This document shows positions 10,368-50,533 of a DNA stretch of 58,481 nucleotides, one piece after another. The notes beneath the pieces are model-generated. The model ran no database searches. It was not told where the DNA came from and saw nothing but the letters and a program-made list of their open reading frames with translations. Numbering within the stretch: the first letter of the stretch is position 1; every line of letters starts with the position of its first letter. The stretch is from Thermoplasmata archaeon (GTDB taxonomy: Archaea > Thermoplasmatota > Thermoplasmata > Lutacidiplasmatales > UBA184). The position numbers and the translations under genes are program-made. The DNA is taken from assembly GCA_028864975.1 (NCBI GenBank), contig JAGWLG010000022.1, positions 1 through 58,481 on the forward strand. The letters run 5' to 3'.

Positions 10368-11901
10368 GGTAGTGTGACGAAACCTGTTGATGTCGCCCCT
10401 GTCAGGAACGTGTTTGGGTAGTCTCCTGACCTCAAGTATTCTACGGCCCCCTCGCGGGGCCTCGCGGAGGTCCGCCTGAGCTCGCTACCGCTCGCTTGGT
10501 CGCTCCGCTCCCGGACCCTTCGCTTGTCCGCCGATAGGCGGACCGAGAGCTACCGCTCGGCCTGCCGCCCGCGGTCCCCCTTCGGGGGACGCCGCTAGAA
10601 GAGGGGTGGAGTGGCTCAGGCCTGGACTCCCCACCTCAGATACCGACGGACTGCCAGCCCCCACACCCTCGGACGGAACCTCCGCACCAGCATCGTCAGG
10701 ACAAGGTTCCTCAGTCCCGAGCCCCAGTGGGCCCACTTCCGCTTACAACGGTCCGCGATCGCTCCCATCACCCTCTCCACCGCATTCGAGGTGGCGGGCA
10801 TCCAGAGCCCTCCTCCCACCTCGGCGAAGACCACCAGGGCCCGCATCTCCCGAAGGACGAATCGGGCCGACTGAGGGCACCCTCCCTGCTCCAGACGATG
10901 GCCCAGGGCCCCGAGCTCCTGGAGGGTGGCCCGCACCCTCTCCGTCACCGCCACCCCGTTCCCATCGTGGCGGTGGAACTCCACCGAGTTCCGCAGATGG
11001 GCCAGGAGACCCCGGACCGGACCTACGACCCGTTCCCTCTCCTCGAGGCTCATCCCCTCGTCGCCGAGGAGATCGTTCAGATGGCGACAGAAATGGACGT
11101 GGCACAACTGCTGGTACTCCGCCCCGAACGCTCGCAGCCCCGGGGCATCGTCGGTGGTGAGCTTCTGGACCTCCTCCCCCTCGAGAGAGGCCCCCGGGGG
11201 TGCGCCGACCCGAACGTTGACCAGCTCGACTCGGTGGTCCTGCCCTTGGCGGATCCCCGCCTCCACCTCGAGCTGCTGCTTCCTCTTCCGTCCCCTCACG
11301 AACGTCGAGTCCGTGGAGTGGTTCTGTCCCAGCTTCACCTCGACAGGGGGCGGGGGGTCCCTCTGGAGGGTTCTCTCGACCACCTGGGCCAGTTCCTTGA
11401 CGAAGTTCCAGATGGTCCGATGGGGGATGCGATAGCCCAGGACCCTTTCCATCAGACGAGAGGCCTCCGGGTACGTGCCCGTGAGGGCGTGCTCGGCGCA
11501 GGGAAGTCGCACATCGGGGGTGTAGCGCTTCTTCCCCAGGCCCAGGGCCTGGAGGAGAGGGATGAACGTCTTCCCGGCGACCCGGTCCCTCACCCGTCGG
11601 ACCCGCACGACCAGGGGTCCCATGCTCGTGCGGAAGCTGCGTTCATAGCCGCCCCAGAGACCGTAGCGGCACCTCCCGTCCTCCTGGCGCACCCTCCGAA
11701 GGTCGTCCAGGAGGTCCTCCTGGGTCCGTTCCATGACGGTGCGTAGGTCCTGGGTGCCCAGGTGCTTGGCGCGGTTCAGCAGATGACCAAAGTCTATGGC
11801 GGGGGGTGTCTCTCCATTCACGGGCCTCTCTCCTTTGGGTTCTTGCGGTTCCCAACAGGGGAGAGGTTCCCCTCGCCATCAACAAATTCCTACACACCAC
11901 T
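10368..11901 (-). mobile_element. Insertion sequence, ISH6/IS256-like, 1534 bp
   Basis: Imperfect 25-bp TIRs (10368-10392 and 11877-11901, 18/25 match); 8-bp TSD GGGTCGGG at 10360-10367 and 11902-11909. Confidence 0.9.
10616..11821 (-). CDS. DDE transposase (ISH6/IS256 superfamily)
   Basis: TDSTFV (D), TDDAPG (D), CHVH and SNAVER (E) motifs; AAAGGAGAGAGG RBS before GTG. Confidence 0.9.
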   Translation of the reverse strand: MNGETPPAIDFGHLLNRAKHLGTQDLRTVMERTQEDLLDDLRRVRQEDGRCRYGLWGGYERSFRTSMGPLVVRVRRVRDRVAGKTFIPLLQALGLGKKRYTPDVRLPCAEHALTGTYPEASRLMERVLGYRIPHRTIWNFVKELAQVVERTLQRDPPPPVEVKLGQNHSTDSTFVRGRKRKQQLEVEAGIRQGQDHRVELVNVRVGAPPGASLEGEEVQKLTTDDAPGLRAFGAEYQQLCHVHFCRHLNDLLGDEGMSLEERERVVGPVRGLLAHLRNSVEFHRHDGNGVAVTERVRATLQELGALGHRLEQGGCPQSARFVLREMRALVVFAEVGGGLWMPATSNAVERVMGAIADRCKRKWAHWGSGLRNLVLTMLVRRFRPRVWGLAVRRYLRWGVQA

Positions 11902-13269: not shown

Positions 13270-14409
13270 CTACGCAGGCAATACCTCGGTCCATGATTTC
13301 ACCGTGATGTACGACGAGAAAGGTGCGTTGCATCGGAGGACCGTGGTGGGAAACCAGTGCGAACTTGGCGTCAGGAACGGAGGCCCGGTGATTGAGACCC
13401 ATGTCCCTGGTCCTGGCACGAACACCTCGTGCGACGTGCCGTTTGGACTGATGCTACTGGTCGGACCGCCGGTCCAAATGCTCGGGGCGTAGGAGAAGTT
13501 CCCAATCCAGCCTACGCAAATAGAGCCGTTCGGAGAACCCGTGAGTTCGACGAACCAACGGGTTGTGGTGTTGAGCTTGGTCGACTCCGGAGCCTGAACC
13601 ATTTGGGCATCCGGTGGCGAAGTCACGTAACACGACATCCCTCCACTGGGGACTGAAATGCAGTCCTCCATCCATGCGGAGACCCGTCCCGTAGGTGGCA
13701 CCAGCAGGCTCCCCGAGAAGAAACCCTCCGGGCCCGTGCCATTCCACCAGGCTTCGAACGTGATCGAGGATGTCGCGTTCCAGTAATTCCACGCTCTGAG
13801 GAAGGATGCGTTCGCCCAGGGGCCCGAGAGTGTGGTTCGACTGATGGAGGAACTTCCCCATCCGGTCCTGTTCGACTGGTCTGATAGGGCAGTACCCCAG
13901 AGTTCTGTGCAGTTGGTGAAGGCATAGCACGGGTCACCGAAGTCACCCCAGAAGAAAGAGAGTCGACCGGAGATGTGCCAAGTCATGGAGAAGGTCTCCG
14001 AATTGAAGCTGATGTTCTTTTCCCAGATGTTCCCCACGAAGACACTACGATTGGCTGGCTCCCAGCCCATCGCGGGTACCGACACCGTGTCGTTGTAAAC
14101 GGTCGCTCCCGGGGGGGGGCTGCCTGGGGGGCCGCCTCCCGGACCATTGCCTGCCCCGTGACCGCCCAGAGAGCCGTTGAAAACGAGGAAGAGCGTCGCC
14201 GACGAGACGGCCAAAGCCGCGACTGCTACGACCGCGATCAGAACAAGCAGTCGGTGACTTCCCTTGGGGGCTGCCGAGTGCGGTGCCCGGACGGGCGGTT
14301 CGGACTGACTTGCCCCCCACGACGCGAGCCCATTCGAAGGAGGAGGTCCCGGCTGTTCGACCGGCTCAGGCGACTGAGAGCCCCAGGGGCTCGGTGCAAC
14401 GCCATCCAC
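13270..14409 (-). CDS. Membrane-anchored surface (glyco)protein
   Basis: Single hydrophobic anchor LLVLIAVVAVAALAVSSATLFLVF followed by a Ser/Thr/Gly/Trp-rich domain with many NxS/T sequons; start uncertain. Confidence 0.7.
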   Translation of the reverse strand: MDGVAPSPWGSQSPEPVEQPGPPPSNGLASWGASQSEPPVRAPHSAAPKGSHRLLVLIAVVAVAALAVSSATLFLVFNGSLGGHGAGNGPGGGPPGSPPPGATVYNDTVSVPAMGWEPANRSVFVGNIWEKNISFNSETFSMTWHISGRLSFFWGDFGDPCYAFTNCTELWGTALSDQSNRTGWGSSSISRTTLSGPWANASFLRAWNYWNATSSITFEAWWNGTGPEGFFSGSLLVPPTGRVSAWMEDCISVPSGGMSCYVTSPPDAQMVQAPESTKLNTTTRWFVELTGSPNGSICVGWIGNFSYAPSIWTGGPTSSISPNGTSHEVFVPGPGTWVSITGPPFLTPSSHWFPTTVLRCNAPFSSYITVKSWTEVLPA

Positions 14410-14729
14410 GCATGTCGATAGTCCCCTCAACACAAAAACCGCACGCATTGTCCGTGGGGCCGTCCCGGTCACCGGAGAGGGGCAGCTGACCAGTTGGGGG
14501 CCGCGGGCGGCCTCGGAGCGACGCCTGGGGGTCGCCCCTCGGCCGCACCAACTGGAGCTGACCATCCTGCACGAGCAGGTTGAACGGATCGTGGCCACAG
14601 TCCAGACAATCATCCGCGCACTCGCCCCTTCGGGCCGAGTGCACGAGGTGCGCCCTTCGTGCGCACGGGCCGCCTACGGCGGCCCTGGGACGCGCCTCCA
14701 GGAATCGCCGCGGGGTTCATCCACTGTCC

Positions 14730-15152
14730 ATGGATGTCATGGTCATGAGTGAGCCCGGCAGGTTGTGGGTAGGAAGCGTCGTGATAGAGACCAAGCCCTC
14801 CTCGTTCCACCGGTTGGTGAAGTTCTGGTGCGAGGCGCTGCACTACGTGCCGCGAGAACCCCTTGGGGACTGGGCGCTCCTTCGCGATCCGTTCAAGAGT
14901 GGCCCCAACATCGCCATCCAGCAGGCCCCCGAAAAGGCCGAGGTCCCGGGGCCGGAAGGCAGGTTCCATCTTGACCTCTACTCCAGCGACTGGAAGGCCG
15001 AGACCCAGAGGCTCCTCGGGCTGGGAGCCGCGATGGTTGAGCCCGCCCAGGAGGGGCGGGACTTCGCCACCCTCGCCGATCCCGACGGGAACCTTCTGGA
15101 CGTCATCGACGCGCGCGGTTACGGGTACAAGTTCGGCCAGCGTGGCCCTTGA
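14730..15152 (+). CDS. VOC/glyoxalase-like protein
   Basis: FW..AL, RFHLDL and LADPDGNLLDV motifs. Confidence 0.85.
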   Translation: MDVMVMSEPGRLWVGSVVIETKPSSFHRLVKFWCEALHYVPREPLGDWALLRDPFKSGPNIAIQQAPEKAEVPGPEGRFHLDLYSSDWKAETQRLLGLGAAMVEPAQEGRDFATLADPDGNLLDVIDARGYGYKFGQRGP

Positions 15153-15175
15153 GCTCCTCTCGGACGATCTCATCG

Positions 15176-15565
15176 ATGTCCGAGCAGAGCGGAAACACCG
15201 CCTCCGAGCACGCCAACAACGCCGAACGCACCACCTGCCCCACCTGCGGCCGACCTATCGGCGCCGCCCCCGCCGCGCCCGGGATTGCCGCGCTCCGCGC
15301 GAACAGCGAAGCGAGCCTTGAGGCGACCGTGGCCTCCGTGGGTCCCACCCGTGAGGTCGTCACCTCCCGAGGTCCCGCAGAGGTCGCCGACGCCGTGCTC
15401 CAGGACGCGAGCGGCACCGTGAAGCTCGTCTTGTGGGGTCCGCAGACCACGAAGCTCCAGGCGGGGCAGCGCGTGCGGCTCGCGGGCGCTTGGGTCAAGG
15501 AATACCGGGGCAGGCTCCAGCTCTCCCTTGGTTCGGCCGCGTCCATGGTCGTCTTGGGGCCCTGA
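15176..15565 (+). CDS. ssb: Single OB-fold ssDNA-binding protein
   Basis: VADAVLQDASGTVKLVLWG and WVKEYRGRLQLSLG match archaeal SSB/RPA OB folds. Confidence 0.8.
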   Translation: MSEQSGNTASEHANNAERTTCPTCGRPIGAAPAAPGIAALRANSEASLEATVASVGPTREVVTSRGPAEVADAVLQDASGTVKLVLWGPQTTKLQAGQRVRLAGAWVKEYRGRLQLSLGSAASMVVLGP

Positions 15566-15779
15566 GGACGCGGCCTCGCGAGGGGCCCCGTGCCCCGGTC
15601 CTTCGGTTTGTGGCCGGGATGGGGGGCCCCTCGCCCGCAACGCGTCGATGGCGGTGCTCGGGCCCTGAGGCACCCGGGGTCTACGGCCTCCCTCCCTTTG
15701 TGAGGGAGGCCTCGGACGGACCAATCGGGGTCCGTCCAGCTCCGTCAGCGGATCGGCGCTTGACGGGTCTCCTCCCTCC

Positions 15780-15883
15780 GCGGGTGTGGCCGAGCGGTTG
15801 AAGGCGCCGGGCCGAAGGCGGGGTAACTCGTTGGAAACCCGGTGGGTGCTTGCACCCCGAGGGTTCGAATCCCTCCGCTCGCG
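15780..15883 (+). tRNA. Type II (Ser-like body) tRNA with 19-nt intron; anticodon GAA if spliced at the canonical BHB, GGA if spliced non-canonically
   Basis: Acceptor GCGGGTG/CGCTCGC plus G73; D-arm GCCGAGCGGTTGAAGGC; anticodon stem CCGGG/CCCGG; variable arm GGGTG-CTTG-CACCC; T-arm GAGGG-TTCGAAT-CCCTC; BHB CCGA/TTGG with AGG and AAA bulges. Confidence 0.88.
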
Positions 15884-16301
15884 TCTCACGCATTCTGGGG
15901 GGGGTAACGAGGGGAGGGGTCGCCCCCTCCCCCCGGCGGGCGTGGTGAGTCACGCCGCTCGCGCCACCCGGAGTTTCACGACCTCCGGGACGTCGCTAAT
16001 GGCATCGCTCTCTTGAGTCTTGAAGTTGGTGTTCGGTCGCGATTGTGCGGTGTGGTCTCAGTCCCGTCAGAACCGCGACCGACGCGAAATCGGTGCGCTG
16101 AGCGCTGCTTTCCGTAGTACCCGTCCGCACACCGAACAACGAGGGCGACCTGACTCTTCCGATATCCCTGCTCGTGGATCCTCGTCAGCATCCGTTGACC
16201 CGAGAGGCCATGGGAGCCCGCATCCGTGGCACAGCGAGGTCGCCACGCGTACGTGACCGCGTCTCCCCTACATGTTCGTGCCGAGACCCTCGGTTCTCGC
16301 T

Positions 16302-16835
16302 TCACTTCACAGGGGCCCAGCCATGGGACCACTCATGGAACTCCGTAACGGGGGGCTCGATCCCATGGCGCCACAGCAGGGCGTTCATCTCCCCTCGATG
16401 CTGGAGCTCCTCCTCGACCATGTGCCAAAGCATGGCCCGCAGTGTGACACGCTCCCTGCGCCATCGAGTCCACCCATCGTCGACCGGGGCGTTGAATTCG
16501 ATGACGCGATCCAAGTCTCGCTCCTTCAGCCGCAAGACGAACTGGAGCACTTCCCGCGTGGTCCGAGACATGGCCCGTCGGGCACCCTCAACGGTCCGGA
16601 TGCTCGTTCGAAGGCGGCCGGACGGGAACAGGCGCACCGTGTCGGTGTAGACGTACCTGAACCACCACCGATAGGCGTCGAGGACGTGCAGGAAGATCTC
16701 GAACAGGGGGAACGATGCCCCGTCGTTCAGCCGGCGCTTGCTCGCCGGGAGCCGCGATATCGCCGCGAGGTACTTCGGCCGAACCTCAGCATTGTAGCGG
16801 TACCAGGTGCAAATCGATTCAAGCTCCCCCCGCAC
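16302..16835 (-). CDS. DinB/YfiT-family protein
   Basis: WYRYNAEVR, FLHVLDA and WHMVEEELQHRGE motifs; GGAGGTG RBS before GTG. Confidence 0.88.
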   Translation of the reverse strand: MRGELESICTWYRYNAEVRPKYLAAISRLPASKRRLNDGASFPLFEIFLHVLDAYRWWFRYVYTDTVRLFPSGRLRTSIRTVEGARRAMSRTTREVLQFVLRLKERDLDRVIEFNAPVDDGWTRWRRERVTLRAMLWHMVEEELQHRGEMNALLWRHGIEPPVTEFHEWSHGWAPVK

Positions 16836-17169
16836 GTCCCACCTCCCCCCCGGTAGTCGCCCTGTCTGAAGAACCTGCGGAAGGGCCGCGCCCGGGCCCC
16901 CGGAAAGGCCCCAAGTTGCTTGTGATCGTTTAGCGTCGCCCCCTCTCCTACCCACCCGCCTCCGCCCTCTCCCCCACGCTTGGTAAGGATGCGGAAGGGT
17001 AGGGTGCGTGGGGGAAAGGGCTCCCCCGCCACCGCACGGGCGGCGGGTCCTCCCGTTCGCTTCGCGAACGGGTCCTCCCGCCGCGCAGGGGTGATTCAGG
17101 AGTGGTCGTCGTTCTGAGCGCTACACTCGAGAGGAGTCGAAGGACAGGTAGATTCGTTGGCCCGGACAA

Positions 17170-17927: not shown

Positions 17928-20900
17928 GTGGCCGAATCCGCGGAAACGGGGCCCGCCCACGCTCTCCCCGCCGCCGCCGAGACGTTGTTCGTGGGCCGAA
18001 CCCGGGAGCTCGCTCTGCTGGTCCGTGCCCTGGAGGACGCGAAGGCCGGGAAGGGAAGCGCCTGGGTCGTAGAGGGACCCGCGGGGATGGGGAAGACCCG
18101 CCTCGTCCGGGAGGTTCAGGAGGAGTCGTCCCAGAGGGGCTTCCGGGTCCTCTCCGGCCACTGCTTGAAGGAGGTCCTTACGCCCTTCTTCGTGTTCCAG
18201 CAAGCCCTCCGTCCCCTTCAGGACCGTGGGGAGCTGAGCCCCGCGAGCCTCCCTGATCCCTTGCCGTCGCTCGTCGTCTTCGAGGAGGACCGCCCCGCCC
18301 GCGTGTTCGAGGAGGCCGCCCTCCTGTCTGCGCGGACCCCCTGCCTCCTCGTCGCCCGCGAGCCATCTCGGCGGCTCCGCGCCCGTCTGCCAGCGCTCCA
18401 CCCTTCCGCGGAGCTCCTCGGTCTCTCGAAGGAGGAGAGGTCCGACCAATCCTCTCCCCTGCTCATGGATGAGCTCGGGCACCGGCTCGCTGCGCATCTT
18501 TCGGCCCGTCGCGGCAGCGTCATCGCGATGGGCGGGCTCGGCTACCTCGCGAGCCAGAACGGTTTTCCCGCCTTGCTGCGGCTCATCCAGTTCCTCCGCG
18601 ATTCGGCGGAGGAGAGCGGAGGACATCTTCTCCTCTCCCTCAATCCGACGGCGTTCGATGACCGTCAGGTCATGCTCGTGGAAGCGGATGCCCACGTCCT
18701 CCGTCGTCCGGTCCCTGAGGCGCTCTCTCCCGGCGCCCCCGAGCCCTCCTCGACGACGATGCTCCGATATCTCGACACGATCGAGGAGACGGCCCATCTC
18801 CGGCCGATCCTGATCGTGCTCGACGACCTGCAGTGGGCCGACGCGGATTCCCTGCGGGCAGCCCGCTTCCTGGCACGGAACCTCCGGTCCGCCTCGGTGA
18901 CCCTGCTGGCCACGCTACGGACGGAGGAGGAACGGGCCGACCCTGCGGAAGGGCAGTCCTTGCGGGAGACGCTCGAGGGGATGGAGCACGACGGGACGTT
19001 GCGCCGTCTCCCCCTCTCGGGCCTGGCCGAGGACGAGGCCCAACAGATGGCCCGTGCTCTGTTCGGTCTTCCTCTTGGGCTCGGAGAGGAGGACGACAGC
19101 TTCCGCGCCCTCTTCCGAAGGTCCGGGGGAAACCCGTTCTTCCTCCAAGAGACCCTGCGACAGCTCGCCGCAGAGGGGCATCTCCGGCGCGACGGCGGAC
19201 GGCTGGGGGTGAACGTCCTTGCGAAGGCGGACGGGTCTCGCCGGGACGGCCCTCCTGCCCTACCCGACACGCTTCGTCGGCTAGTGTCGCGACGTCTACA
19301 GGGCATCACGAAAGAGGGGCGGGAGATGTTGGAGTGGGGGGCGGACGCGGGAAGTGAGTTCGACCTTCCGCCGATCGCGGCGGCGCTCGGAAGAGACACG
19401 ACGGACGTGGAACGCGCATTGGAGCGCCTGCAGGACGAGCAGGGTCTCGTCGGACGGGGTCTCGGGGGCGGAGAGGGGTGGTCCTTCTCGCACCCTCTCC
19501 TCTGGGAGGTCCTCCTCGCAGAGCAGCCGGAACCGGAGCTGAGGGAAAGGTCGCTGCGCCTGGCCGACTGGTGGGGGTCGAGCCGCCCCCAGGAGGAGGG
19601 GACGGTGGCCCGTCTCTACCACGACGCCCACAACGCGGAACGAGGCCTACCTTGGGTGCGGAAGGCGCTGGAGCGGGCCATCATGGCTCAGGGCCCGGAG
19701 ACCGTGGAGCGCTACCACCGATGGCTGCAGGAGATGCTGGAGCTCTCAGGAGTGTCGGTGGACACGCGCGTCAGAGAGGGCCTGGAGGTCGCCTTACGGC
19801 TCGGGCGAGCGTCGGGTTCCTCGCGCCCCTTGCTGCGGATCTATGAGGGACTTCTCGCGCTCCGGCCATCGGACGAGATCCGATGGGAGGTCGGCGCGAG
19901 GTGCGTGAGCACCCTCGTCAACATCGACCCGGGGGAAGGAGGGAAGCGCCTGGACGCCCTCCAGCTCGAAGTGGAGGGGATCCCGGGGGGTCCTCCCCCG
20001 AAGGTCAGGCTGGCGATCCTCCAGAGCAGGTCCCTTCTGGGACTGTTCGCCCACGATCACGCGGCGTCGCTGGCATCGGCGGAGGACGCGCTGCACTGGG
20101 CGGGTGTCGCGGGGGATGACTGGGACCGGGCGTGGGCGCTCTATTGCGGGGGCTGGGCCCTCAGTCAGCTTGGACGGAGGGCCGAGCTTGGGACATGGCT
20201 CACGAAGCTCCGCGCGGTGACCGAAAGGACAGGATGGGCCCGTCTGGAAGGCATGCAGGCCTCGCTGGGGGCCCAGATGGCCTGGTCGGCGGGCGACCTT
20301 GCGATGGCCCGGCTCGGCTGGAAGGACGTCCTAGAGGCGACCCGGCGCACGGGTGACCACCGCACGGCCTGCAGCGCCATGGTCAACCTTGGGTTCGTGC
20401 TCCTCCTTGCCGGGGAGACGGAGGAGGCGATGAGCGTGGCGCGGGAGGCGCGACGGCTGGCCGAACGCTTCGACCTCCCTACGCAGGTCGGAGCGACCCT
20501 CCACATGATGGGGGAGGCGCTCCTGCGTGAACGTCGTACGAACGAGGCGCGGGCGAGCCTAGAAGAGGCCCTGACCACGTTCGCACGCCTGGACTATCAC
20601 GAGCAGGAATCCTCCTGTCGGCTCATCCTCGCGGAGGCCCTCCTGGTGGAGGGGGCTCCCCGCGAGGCCCTATCGGAGCTCGAGCGCGCGGCCAGCGGCG
20701 CGGGAGGGTCAGAGGGGCCGCAAGCCCGGCAAGGGCTCCCTTTGCTCCGCAGCTGGCTCCACGAGGCGTTGGGGGAAGCCGCGGAGGCGCGAAGGCGATT
20801 GGACGAGGCGCTCCAGGTGTCGAAGGAGGCGGGCGACGCCCTGGCGGAGGCCCAGGTCAAGGCCTCGCTGGCCCGATGGGAGCTCGCCCACGGCGATCCC

Positions 20901-21080
20901 TCGCGAGGCTCGGTGCTCCGCACCGAGGCCGACGCTCTCTTCGACCGGTGCGGGGTCGTCCCTGACGGGTGGATCCGTGACTGGCCCCCGGAGGCCGTGG
21001 ACCCTGGGACCCGGCCGCCAAGAGCGAGGGACCCGTCCATGGAGCATGACGAACCCCCGCAGACCCGTCGCGTTCCATAG
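17928..21080 (+). CDS. STAND-like AAA ATPase (AAA_16) with inserted DUF835-like domain and C-terminal TPR-like repeats
   Basis: FVGRTREL, Walker A GPAGMGKT, Walker B LIVLDDLQWAD, RSGGNPFFL. The ~150-aa insert has the DUF835 pattern (GLGYLASQNGF...LLSLNPTAFD). Helical repeats follow. Confidence 0.85.
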   Translation: MAESAETGPAHALPAAAETLFVGRTRELALLVRALEDAKAGKGSAWVVEGPAGMGKTRLVREVQEESSQRGFRVLSGHCLKEVLTPFFVFQQALRPLQDRGELSPASLPDPLPSLVVFEEDRPARVFEEAALLSARTPCLLVAREPSRRLRARLPALHPSAELLGLSKEERSDQSSPLLMDELGHRLAAHLSARRGSVIAMGGLGYLASQNGFPALLRLIQFLRDSAEESGGHLLLSLNPTAFDDRQVMLVEADAHVLRRPVPEALSPGAPEPSSTTMLRYLDTIEETAHLRPILIVLDDLQWADADSLRAARFLARNLRSASVTLLATLRTEEERADPAEGQSLRETLEGMEHDGTLRRLPLSGLAEDEAQQMARALFGLPLGLGEEDDSFRALFRRSGGNPFFLQETLRQLAAEGHLRRDGGRLGVNVLAKADGSRRDGPPALPDTLRRLVSRRLQGITKEGREMLEWGADAGSEFDLPPIAAALGRDTTDVERALERLQDEQGLVGRGLGGGEGWSFSHPLLWEVLLAEQPEPELRERSLRLADWWGSSRPQEEGTVARLYHDAHNAERGLPWVRKALERAIMAQGPETVERYHRWLQEMLELSGVSVDTRVREGLEVALRLGRASGSSRPLLRIYEGLLALRPSDEIRWEVGARCVSTLVNIDPGEGGKRLDALQLEVEGIPGGPPPKVRLAILQSRSLLGLFAHDHAASLASAEDALHWAGVAGDDWDRAWALYCGGWALSQLGRRAELGTWLTKLRAVTERTGWARLEGMQASLGAQMAWSAGDLAMARLGWKDVLEATRRTGDHRTACSAMVNLGFVLLLAGETEEAMSVAREARRLAERFDLPTQVGATLHMMGEALLRERRTNEARASLEEALTTFARLDYHEQESSCRLILAEALLVEGAPREALSELERAASGAGGSEGPQARQGLPLLRSWLHEALGEAAEARRRLDEALQVSKEAGDALAEAQVKASLARWELAHGDPSRGSVLRTEADALFDRCGVVPDGWIRDWPPEAVDPGTRPPRARDPSMEHDEPPQTRRVP

Positions 21081-48679: not shown

Positions 48680-49573
48680 ATGGTCCCGGCGGACGCGGCC
48701 CCCACCTCCCCCTCCCGGGACACCGAGAACGCCCTTCGACGAGGACTGGAGGTCCTCCGAGCTTTCCCAGGGCCGCTCCAGGGCGAGAGACCCGTGCCCC
48801 CGAGCGCGGACCCCACGTCCGAGGTCCTGAAGGACGCGGAGGAGACCCTCCGGGCGCTCCGCAGAGAGATCGAAGCCCTCGGGCCCTGGTTCGAGACGTT
48901 CGTCGGCTCCTCGCTCGTCGTCACCATGGCCACCCGGTCCATCGACGAGGCCTTGGAGCCCTTCTCGCTCCATCTGCATCAGCTGCGGGAGCCTCCCTCC
49001 CAGGTCGTTTCCCTGGTCGCGCGACCGGTCCACGTCGCCTCCGAGCGCCTCCAGGCCGTGATCGAACTGCTCCCAGGCCACGTGCGGCTGGCACGCCGGA
49101 TGAGCGCACGGGAGCGGTCCTTCGGGGAGCGGGTCCAGGCGATGCCCCGCAAGCTGCGGCGCAGGTTCTACGTGGGCCTTCTGCTGGGTGTCCTCTTCCT
49201 CCTCTCCGTGGCCGTCGGGGCGGTCATCCTCCTCGTGCCTTCCGTGGGGGGGTCGCTCGGGGTCTCGAGCCTCATCGCGAAGTACGCGCCGACAAGCGCG
49301 GGGGTCATCGTCATGGCCGTCCTCTTCTTCACCGGGGCGCGTCTCATCCTGGGATCCATCTGGCTCACCCGGACGATCTCGATCCTTCCCCAGTACGAGG
49401 AGCGCCGCGTCGACGCGGCGAAGGCGGGGATCGCCCGAAGGGAGACCCAGGTCCTCGGGAAGCTCGCCCCCAAGTCCGAAAGCCCGGACCCTCTCGCCTC
49501 CCCCGGGACCTCGGGGAGCTCCGCCCCCGCTCGAGTTCCACCGGCCTCAGAGCTGCGGGAGCGTGATGCCTAG
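48680..49573 (+). CDS. Hypothetical protein with two TMs
   Basis: Helical N-terminus and two hydrophobic segments; TTAAG upstream. Confidence 0.6.
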   Translation: MVPADAAPTSPSRDTENALRRGLEVLRAFPGPLQGERPVPPSADPTSEVLKDAEETLRALRREIEALGPWFETFVGSSLVVTMATRSIDEALEPFSLHLHQLREPPSQVVSLVARPVHVASERLQAVIELLPGHVRLARRMSARERSFGERVQAMPRKLRRRFYVGLLLGVLFLLSVAVGAVILLVPSVGGSLGVSSLIAKYAPTSAGVIVMAVLFFTGARLILGSIWLTRTISILPQYEERRVDAAKAGIARRETQVLGKLAPKSESPDPLASPGTSGSSAPARVPPASELRERDA

Positions 49574-50533
49574 GAGGGGCGTTGTGAAGTGGAAGAGCGC
49601 GAGGTACGCAAGCGCGTAGCCCAGGATCCCGAAGCCGTTCAGGAAGGGCAGGCCCGCCTGCGGGTTGCCGCGCGAGACCAGGTACATCAGGATCGCGTAG
49701 CCCAGGAGCGAGCCCAACATCGCCGCGAGCGCGACGAGAAGGTTCGCGGGAACCCCGCCCAGGAAGGGAGAGCCCTTCGCCACGTTGACGAACGCGCTCA
49801 CCACGAGGATGCCCGGGATGACGACGTCGCCGAGCCCCATGAACGTCGCCTCTCGCTCCTCCGGCGCGGCCTTCACCTTCGCCCGGGCCTCCTTCATCGG
49901 GGCGCTCTTCGTGTAGTCGAAGTTCGGCTCCGTCGGCATCACGAGGAGGATCGGGAGCTTCATGTCGGAGACGACGTCGGCCAGCGAGACCATGTGTTTG
50001 GTGCCGTAGACCGCGATTGCATCGTAGACCATCAGCACCGCCATCAGGACCAGGACCGGCAGCAGTCCCAGCGAGATGCCCAGGATCGCCGTGAGGCTCC
50101 CCGCGGCCAGGTAGCCCACCGTGTCCACGATGTACCACTGAGGCTCCAGAAGGAGCAGGAGGAAGACGAGGGCGGTGACCATGGCCCCGGCGTAGAACCC
50201 GAGGTCGATGAGCGAGATGCCCCCTTGGATCACGAAGGGTCCGGGCAGCAGGAGGTCCAGCGTCGGGCCGATGGTGAAGATCAGCGACAGGGCGATCGCG
50301 AACAGGATGAAGAACCGGATCATCGAGACGCGGTTCGGGGCGTACTTCGCGATCGCAAGGATGACGAGCGGGATCGCCACGATGGCGACCAGGAAGGGAA
50401 GGATGTTGGTGAGGGAGTTCGGCGAGGCGTTCGTCTGGAGCCCCGCGTGGATGTACGGGAGGGCGAGCGCGATCGCCGTGAGCTGGGAGCCGACGTAGAG
50501 CCCGAGGAGCCCAAAGGACTGGAGGGACCGCAT
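49547..50533 (-). CDS. Presenilin/SPP-family intramembrane aspartyl protease
   Basis: YDAIAV, MGLGD and QAGLPFLN motifs. Confidence 0.93.
   Translation of the reverse strand: MRSLQSFGLLGLYVGSQLTAIALALPYIHAGLQTNASPNSLTNILPFLVAIVAIPLVILAIAKYAPNRVSMIRFFILFAIALSLIFTIGPTLDLLLPGPFVIQGGISLIDLGFYAGAMVTALVFLLLLLEPQWYIVDTVGYLAAGSLTAILGISLGLLPVLVLMAVLMVYDAIAVYGTKHMVSLADVVSDMKLPILLVMPTEPNFDYTKSAPMKEARAKVKAAPEEREATFMGLGDVVIPGILVVSAFVNVAKGSPFLGGVPANLLVALAAMLGSLLGYAILMYLVSRGNPQAGLPFLNGFGILGYALAYLALFHFTTPLLGITLPQL

Follow-up and report, generated by a model that had tools for sequence, protein, structure and literature searches.

The stretch of DNA analysed here (the window) is the whole 58,481-nucleotide (nt) contig JAGWLG010000022.1, designated C83, of the assembly GCA_028864975.1 of a Thermoplasmata archaeon from acid mine drainage, a 3.6-Mb genome of 67% GC that is 89.6% complete; DNA of the window also occurs in mine-drainage and soil metagenomes. 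On its plus strand, at 15780–15883, lies a 104-nt class-II tRNA gene, that is, one with a long variable arm, which does not encode CCA and which is located in an accessory island. We describe this gene, the intron that interrupts its anticodon loop, its relatives and the amino acid that it is likely to carry, because canonical splicing is predicted to place a phenylalanine anticodon on a serine-type body.

A class-II tRNA gene interrupted by a 26-nt insert

The Rfam tRNA model RF00005 matches 15780–15883 (+) at 42.7 bits (gathering score, 29), and R1, a covariance model of the gene's own family, scores it at 121 bits. As read from the sequence, the gene has an acceptor stem of 7 bp (GCGGGTG/CGCTCGC) that includes the pairs G4·U69 and U6·G67, a D arm with a 3-bp stem and an 11-nt loop, and an anticodon stem (CCGGG/CCCGG) that surrounds a 26-nt insert at 15812–15837. 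These are followed by a 16-nt variable arm with a 5-bp stem and one unpaired 3′ base, a standard T arm and the discriminator base G73 at 15883. The long arm, the single unpaired 3′ base and G73 had led the original prediction to call the body serine-type, and this description stands; G73 and the long arm recur in all nine genes of the family described below. The family also has the features of an elongator tRNA: U8, A14, G18–G19, the option of a G15:C48 pair, TTCGAAT, a 7/5 acceptor/T arrangement and a 7-nt anticodon loop with a purine at position 37.

The sequence of the gene is secure. A contig from a different sample (X2 record 14) spans 15598–17000 with zero differences, which rules out an assembly error and disposes of the sequencing error that had been considered at 15812–15817. 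In a further run (X4), identical contigs end at 15807 and start again at 15915.

The insert forms a canonical bulge–helix–bulge

Archaeal bulge–helix–bulge (BHB) motifs are cleaved after the second base of each bulge. We scanned the insert with our own program, which looks for two 3-nt bulges with 4 bp between them and cuts past the second bulge base, in keeping with the strict archaeal motif, in which the two bulges lie on opposite strands of the 4-bp helix (PMC4033280). A single candidate ranked far ahead of all others. Its outer helix is the anticodon stem of the tRNA; its central helix pairs CCGA (15812–15815) with TTGG (15831–15834) at four of four positions; and its inner helix, CGGG/CTCG, closes on a GTAA loop to form the intron hairpin (15819–15830). 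The 5′ bulge is AGG (15816–15818), with the cut at 15817/15818, and the 3′ bulge is AAA (15835–15837), with the cut at 15836/15837. Of 200,000 shuffled versions of the insert, just 53 produced a strict canonical BHB, and the same cut rule, tried on the tRNA-Glu(UUC) of this genome, restored a 7-nt loop.

Splicing at these sites would remove a 19-nt intron (15818–15836) from the canonical position 37/38. It would join the 5′ exon (15780–15817), which holds the acceptor 5′ strand, the D arm, the 5′ strand of the anticodon stem and loop positions 32–37 (C C G A A G), to the 3′ exon (15837–15883), which holds A38, the 3′ strand of the anticodon stem, the variable arm (15843–15858), the T arm, the acceptor 3′ strand and G73. 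The predicted product is an 85-nt tRNA with the loop C-C-GAA-G-A (C32-C33-G34-A35-A36-G37-A38), in which the anticodon GAA (15814–15816) occupies positions 34–36 and C33 (15813), the partner of G15833 in the pre-tRNA, replaces the usual U33. The scanner and the shuffles thus bear out the BHB, the 37/38 cut and the C-C-GAA-G-A loop drawn in the original prediction. The genome encodes one splicing endonuclease (EndA) open reading frame (ORF), on contig C53 at ~49166–49945, with two PF01974 catalytic-type domains, and its specificity is probably broad.

A different product would arise if the intron were removed at 31/32 or 32/33, which would make the gene an ordinary tRNA-Ser(GGA). ARAGORN, which finds no tRNA in the window in its default mode, returns Ser(gga) i(34,19) when introns are allowed, together with many false long-intron calls. 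C15812 followed by 15832–15837 reads CUGGAAA, the same loop as in the intron-less tRNA-Ser(GGA) of a sister genus, and non-canonical introns are common in this genome. Scans for a BHB at the 31/32 or 32/33 sites, however, revealed no motif of any kind, in agreement with the earlier failure to draw one there, and the genome has a native tRNA-Ser(GGA) elsewhere. The serine-like loop has a simple origin: the 3′ strand of the central helix, together with the bulge bases AA and A38, imitates it because pairing with CCGA forces that strand to read U-(U/C)-G-G. We estimate that, given a GAA anticodon, such a look-alike is expected in roughly 3–12% of cases. This has a practical side: intron-aware tRNA finders label the gene Ser(GGA), misled by the resemblance between a serine loop and the part of the intron that lies opposite the anticodon. 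With the sequences of the relatives, given next, we regard splicing to Ser(GGA) as barely credible.

The GAA anticodon is conserved across diverged relatives

Relatives were sought through homologues of the OB-fold protein encoded upstream of the tRNA gene, and contigs encoding 12 homologues were taken; a member of the tRNA family adjoins 7 of the 12 homologue clusters inspected. The search yielded nine distinct genes, namely the window gene and eight relatives, at L078:2089–2192, L080:2002–2157, L083:2963–3066, L084:2963–3066, L087:2800–3018 (identical to L088–L090), L091:764–917 (L091a), L091:2458–2567 (L091b) and L096:2425–2528; a copy in L093, cut by a Tn3-type element, is extra to this count. 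In all nine, G73 and the long arm are retained and the BHB is strict and canonical, joining C-(C/U)-GAA-G to A, so that the search for orthologues proposed earlier has provided eight further genes with the same anticodon and the same splice. ARAGORN read gaa in all of the family genes tested after in silico splicing, with mature lengths of 85–88 nt.

The pattern of variation in the insert follows the canonical exon–intron boundaries. Positions 15812 and 15814–15817 are without variation in the eight aligned relatives, the anticodon is GAA in nine of nine members and A38 (15837) is invariant. Position 33 is C in eight distinct genes, and in L096/L097 it is U with the partner A, a compensatory change from C:G to U:A that makes the mature loop CUGAAGA, the same as that of the native tRNA-Phe. 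The 3′ strand of the central helix is TTGG, TCGG or TCAG in the relatives and complementary to positions 32–35 every time; across the nine genes the helix stays 100% paired, and it shows a single compensatory change and a single one-sided one. The third base of the 5′ bulge is G or A, bulge positions 15835 and 15836 vary, and the second pair of the inner helix is G:C, G:U or A:U.

Among the eight family genes with a 19-nt intron, the canonical 37/38 model leaves one of seven mature-loop positions varying (position 33, which is compensated) and 11 of 19 intron positions, the first and last included; apart from position 33, variation in the insert is confined to the intron. Under the 31/32 or 32/33 model, four of seven loop positions vary and two of the three supposed anticodon bases differ. 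The 3′ heptamer is TTGGAAA in the window only and becomes TTGGAGA, TCGGAGA or TCAGGCA in the relatives, where the supposed serine loop is thus UUGGAGA, UCGGAGA or UCAGGCA; a 32/33 splice that gives gga in the window would give agg in L096. The unexplained non-canonical splice to Ser(GGA), raised as one option in the original prediction, is not consistent with these changes, and we reject it.

Covariation was measured on the nine-gene alignment, over the cloverleaf and both BHB helices, against shuffled controls and controls in which the pairing partners were slid. Paired cells make up 98% of the alignment, compared with 35–53% with slid partners, and ten pairs have changed on both sides, compared with 3.2 ± 1.1 in shuffles (none of 500 reached ten) and 0–1 in slid controls. 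The two G·U pairs in the acceptor stem of the window gene are intermediates in this series (G:C/U:A in L078 and A:U/C:G in L083), and the pairing of the variable arm is retained across changes from U:A to C:G. These data bear on a further alternative, a decaying or silent pseudogene copy that travels with mobile DNA, which had been suggested on account of the same two G·U pairs and to which the patchy distribution of the family, the relative cut by a Tn3-type element and the lack of a TATA-like box 18–45 nt upstream of the island tRNA lend some colour. Against it stand the ten pairs with compensatory changes, the 98% of cells paired, the BHB that is intact in every complete copy and an anticodon loop that stays invariant while the intron drifts, and we consider a pseudogene very improbable. 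On sequence evidence, the island tRNA is a real gene under selection across several diverged copies.

Some relatives carry further introns, in the T loop in L080 and L091a and in both the D and T loops in L087, whose gene (L087:2800–3018) thus has three: ~62 nt in the D loop, 19 nt at 37/38 and ~52 nt in the T loop. Additional introns are a habit of native tRNAs in the same lineage. The strict BHB scanner missed the extra introns of L080, L087 and L091a, which appear to use relaxed motifs.

Other searches returned little. When 61 relatives were searched by BLAST with the 104-nt gene, the matches were T-arm fragments only; a scan for TGGAAA followed by the T loop found only the native Ser(GGA) genes of genus g3; and exact-pattern scans of genome and metagenome contigs found only unrelated Ser(CGA)/Leu(UAG) genes with a common anticodon stem. 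The unpublished genome G028 was counted only in not-found tallies, and no positive claim uses it.

The body carries the identity elements of serine

The host has a full set of serine tRNAs without the island gene. Its tRNA-Ser(GGA), on C104 at ~121069–121186 (+) (L074), is the orthologue of the intron-less Ser(GGA) gene in the sister genus; its anticodon loop reads CUGGAAA, and an intron interrupts its T loop at 59/60; Ser(UGA) on C50, Ser(CGA) on C21 and Ser(GCU) on C32 complete the set. A normal tRNA-Phe(GAA) of 73 nt, with A73 and G20, lies at C124:31088–31160. Both genes that the original prediction had proposed to look for are therefore present, and the island tRNA, the fifth and a divergent serine-type gene of the genome, is dispensable as either Ser(GGA) or Phe.

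Seryl-tRNA synthetases (SerRS) of the archaeal and bacterial types recognize G73, then G30:C40, together with G1:C72 and the long arm, and the anticodon plays no role; phenylalanine identity depends on G34-A35-A36 and A73, plus G20 in A. pernix (PMC9976931). In the island family, G73 and G1:C72 are present in nine of nine genes, G30:C40 in eight of nine (A:U in L091b), and the long arm is kept throughout. A serine anticodon (NGA or GCU) is absent, GAA taking its place in all nine, although the anticodon is no identity element for serine. The phenylalanine elements of the island tRNA are limited to G34-A35-A36, with G73 and U20 instead of A73 and G20, and at 85 nt with a long arm it lacks the class-I body of the 73-nt native tRNA-Phe. 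The mature island tRNA is identical at 63–64 of 85 positions to the native Ser(UGA) and Ser(CGA), at 54–59 to Leu and at 49 to Phe, in a comparison that left out the native Ser(GGA) and Ser(GCU), whose mature reconstructions are incomplete; the family model likewise scores native serine tRNAs higher (59–62 bits) than Leu (52 bits). The host encodes one SerRS, on contig C29, of the common type with an N-terminal arm domain. Because all serine elements are present and the phenylalanine elements are confined to the anticodon, serylation is most likely the outcome of aminoacylation.

These data can be set against the alternative that the gene is a spare tRNA-Phe of odd shape, charged by phenylalanyl-tRNA synthetase (PheRS) through GAA and faithful in its decoding of UUC/UUU; it might, for instance, be a reserve that a nuclease directed against normal tRNA-Phe would miss. 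Such a role would suit the mobile-island context, and the mature loop differs from that of the native tRNA-Phe at position 33 alone, a difference that L096 does not have. Moreover, G34, A35 and A36 are the core of phenylalanine identity, PheRS leans heavily on them, and a GAA anticodon alone sends yeast tRNA-Tyr to PheRS, where it is mischarged (PMC9976931). However, G73 is conserved in nine of nine genes where A73 is needed, position 20 is U and not G, the family has conserved the class-II arm and G30:C40, and SerRS would charge the tRNA anyway barring an antideterminant. We therefore consider a spare tRNA-Phe unlikely.

The unusual base at position 33 may not be special, since the native tRNA-Glu(UUC) of the genus also has C33; G33 is found in Candida tRNA-Ser(CAG). 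Editing of C33 would be unnecessary to explain the gene, given the relative with U33 and a compensating intron change and the C33 of tRNA-Glu(UUC). The tRNA-Glu(UUC) gene itself (G000:C115:54062–54164 (−), L077), which ARAGORN calls Arg(tcg), has a strict canonical BHB intron and the loop C-C-UUC-G-A, and three genomes of the genus share its encoded C33 (L077; L039 in G001; L040 in G003).

The tRNA gene lies in a probable mobile island beside a gene for an SSB

The tRNA gene belongs to a non-syntenic, repeat-rich accessory island at 1–21000, whose right border is approximate and whose left border lies outside the window. The first ~21 kb give short scattered matches to three same-genus genomes, and long collinear blocks begin at about 21–27 kb. 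The island is rich in insertion sequences and contains a match to the candidate defence protein PDC-S36 (2049–2873, −; E 2e-87), an ISH6-family transposase (10616–11821, −) and a STAND NTPase of 1050 aa with TPR repeats (17928–21080, +), which together suggest a defence or mobile island; DinB and glyoxalase-like genes are also present. An ORF at 13270–14613 (−) matches no Pfam family and failed a test of GC at third codon positions (GC3), so it is probably not a gene, and a synteny search that used it found nothing.

At 15149–15565 (+), 215 nt upstream of the tRNA and on the same strand, is a gene for a short archaeal-type single-stranded DNA-binding protein (SSB) with an OB fold. The assignment follows from NCBIfam SSB models (E 1.8e-18, under the curated cut-off) and a weak match to Pfam PF01336. 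Genes for SSB/RPA-like OB-fold proteins (homologues P0001–P0033) occur in several copies per genome in the genus, and the SSB–tRNA spacer differs among strains by a 103–110-nt indel (about 15525–15636). The relatives of the tRNA adjoin IS66/Tn3 transposases, HEPN/nucleotidyltransferase pairs, RVT_3 and TraG.

Most native tRNA genes have a TATA-like box at about −31 to −36, which the island tRNA lacks. The SSB gene is a possible co-transcription partner, and the island tRNA may depend on read-through from it.

A tRNA predicted to place serine at phenylalanine codons

The explanation that we favour, to which we give about an even chance, is that the gene encodes a functional, island-borne extra tRNA in which canonical splicing sets GAA on a serine body and charging with serine leads to Phe-to-Ser substitution. 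EndA would cleave the BHB at 37/38 to leave an 85-nt class-II tRNA with GAA, and the host SerRS, which reads the long arm and G73 and ignores the anticodon, would charge it with serine. The serylated tRNA would then compete with the native tRNA-Phe(GAA) at UUC/UUU codons, and the outcome would be a low-level or conditional substitution of serine for phenylalanine, with output held low by the missing TATA-like box, by dependence on possible SSB read-through and possibly by C33. Of the Phe-to-Ser species first proposed, the serine body that bears GAA after a canonical splice is upheld at the level of the gene, in nine genes, and serylation and mistranslation are what we infer from it.

Several points weigh against this explanation. 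A serine tRNA with GAA is strongly toxic in yeast (PMC6125640), so its steady expression should be selected against. The reliance of PheRS on the anticodon, described above, counts here too, and the tRNA may be charged with phenylalanine or with both amino acids; decoding may be weakened by C33, and the lack of a TATA-like box bears on expression. The invariance of GAA could reflect recognition by a protein instead of decoding. The L093 copy (~2431–2472) ends just past the anticodon at the end of a Tn3-type transposon, and of the 151 representative genomes of the taxonomic family that were searched with R1, only one contains the tRNA family. Two caveats concern the splice. By counts, the exon/intron variation test is weak (one-sided Fisher p = 0.06), and the argument for the canonical splice is drawn from the compensatory change at position 33 and from L096, where GGA is lost. 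In the nearest-neighbour model, the isolated arm takes up the BHB fold at a cost of 1.7 kcal/mol over the minimum free energy, a gap small enough for the endonuclease to capture the fold.

Some of the same evidence would suit a processed, tRNA-shaped RNA that acts outside ribosomal decoding as a regulator or decoy, a processing signal of the SSB transcript, or a toxin–antitoxin or defence partner, its GAA being kept for recognition by a protein. The transposase, candidate defence gene and STAND NTPase of the island, together with the HEPN/nucleotidyltransferase pairs, IS66/Tn3 transposases and TraG near the relatives, point in that direction, as do the tight linkage to the SSB gene and the missing promoter element. 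Some bacterial allo-tRNAs are tied to toxin–antitoxin systems and inactive in translation (PMC7609411, PMC5389517), and an RNA of this kind fits the toxicity expected of true Ser-for-Phe decoding. On the other hand, the family retains the full complement of elongator features listed above, and the conservation of G73 and the long arm is what selection for recognition by SerRS would produce. We regard a non-decoding role as a possibility, though a doubtful one.

Tentative as it is, and in our judgement unlikely to hold in full, the broadest form of the favoured Phe-to-Ser explanation is that archaeal mobile islands maintain a family of tRNAs dedicated to mis-sense, which after splicing and serylation would bring about a deliberate, probably conditional replacement of phenylalanine by serine. 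If charged and used, the tRNA would put serine at phenylalanine codons; mis-sense tRNAs could then serve, for instance, as toxic effectors in conflicts between element and host or as stress-induced diversifiers of the proteome, with output set by SSB co-transcription and position 33.

Relation to known mismatched tRNAs

Natural tRNAs whose body and anticodon are mismatched are rare, and those of the CUG-clade yeasts, the nev-tRNAs, the allo-tRNAs and tRNA-ProX have each altered views on the rigidity of the code. A search of the literature turned up no account of such tRNAs in archaea. Bacterial allo-tRNAs likewise combine serine identity elements with non-serine anticodons, come from soil, sediment and metagenomes, and in some cases accompany transposons or toxin–antitoxin genes; active ones put serine at sense codons in E. 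coli (PMC5389517, PMC7609411). They are bacterial, however, and have a 12-bp branch of 8/4 or 9/3, whereas the island family is archaeal and 7/5, with both stems covarying, which sets it apart from them. Its genes are also interrupted by a BHB intron, one copy having as many as three introns, and GAA, at most a rare anticodon among allo-tRNAs, is fixed in it.

Closest in architecture are the nematode nev-tRNAs, class-II molecules with an ordinary cloverleaf and an anticodon that is neither Ser nor Leu, which are conserved within their lineage, weakly expressed and charged according to body and not anticodon (PMC3333845). They differ from the island family in being eukaryotic, derived from tRNA-Leu and charged with leucine, with Gly/Ile anticodons, no intron and no mobile elements (PMC3333845). 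Serine bodies that read phenylalanine codons, as predicted here, are known from human tRNA-Ser-AGA-2-3 G35A (tRNA-Ser(AAA)) (PMC12993449, PMC9956149) and from the engineered yeast tS-F(GAA), which has the same anticodon as the island tRNA, misincorporates serine in place of phenylalanine and ranks with the most toxic of the anticodon variants (PMC6125640). The human and yeast cases are single-nucleotide variants or constructs of normal tRNA-Ser, whereas the island family is a gene lineage of its own, under selection in several diverged copies.

tRNA-ProX of Streptomyces/Kitasatospora is a naturally maintained dual-identity tRNA with A33 and a dedicated synthetase (PMC11415595); eight of the nine genes of the island family have C33, and no synthetase gene lies near the island tRNA. 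In the tRNA-Ser(CAG) of CUG-clade yeasts, dual identity accompanies a codon reassignment that is fixed (PMC6041473); the host of the island tRNA still has a normal tRNA-Phe. The island family offers a clean test case: it joins a 7/5 cloverleaf, an unambiguous canonical splice and an invariant GAA, an anticodon among the most toxic on a yeast serine body, with a mobile-island context, a conserved gene neighbour and the coexistence of native tRNA-Phe and a full serine set.

Other unusual tRNA genes of the genome

T-loop (59/60) introns are present in the native Ser(GCU) (C32:~146490–146606 (−), L075), in L046 of G002 and in many native tRNAs, and because of them the Rfam model truncates or misses the native Ser(GGA) and Ser(GCU). 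Contigs C10 and C81 carry an odd pair of 113-nt class-II-like tRNA genes (G000:C10:2785–2897 (+), L073, and G000:C81:10553–10665 (+)) that have common acceptor, D and T arms and A73, whereas the anticodon arm and the variable arm differ. In both genes a 32-nt insert ends in a palindromic hairpin, and neither has a recognizable BHB. Canonical counting gives GGA and UGC, with C33, and none was seen in same-genus genomes. Finally, a 116-nt gene at G000:C6:96500–96615 (−), which ARAGORN calls Arg(gcg), is by eye a tRNA-Tyr(GUA) with C1:G72 and the loop CUGUAG..U, interrupted by an intron at 37/38 and again, in the variable region, by an insert of ~15 nt.
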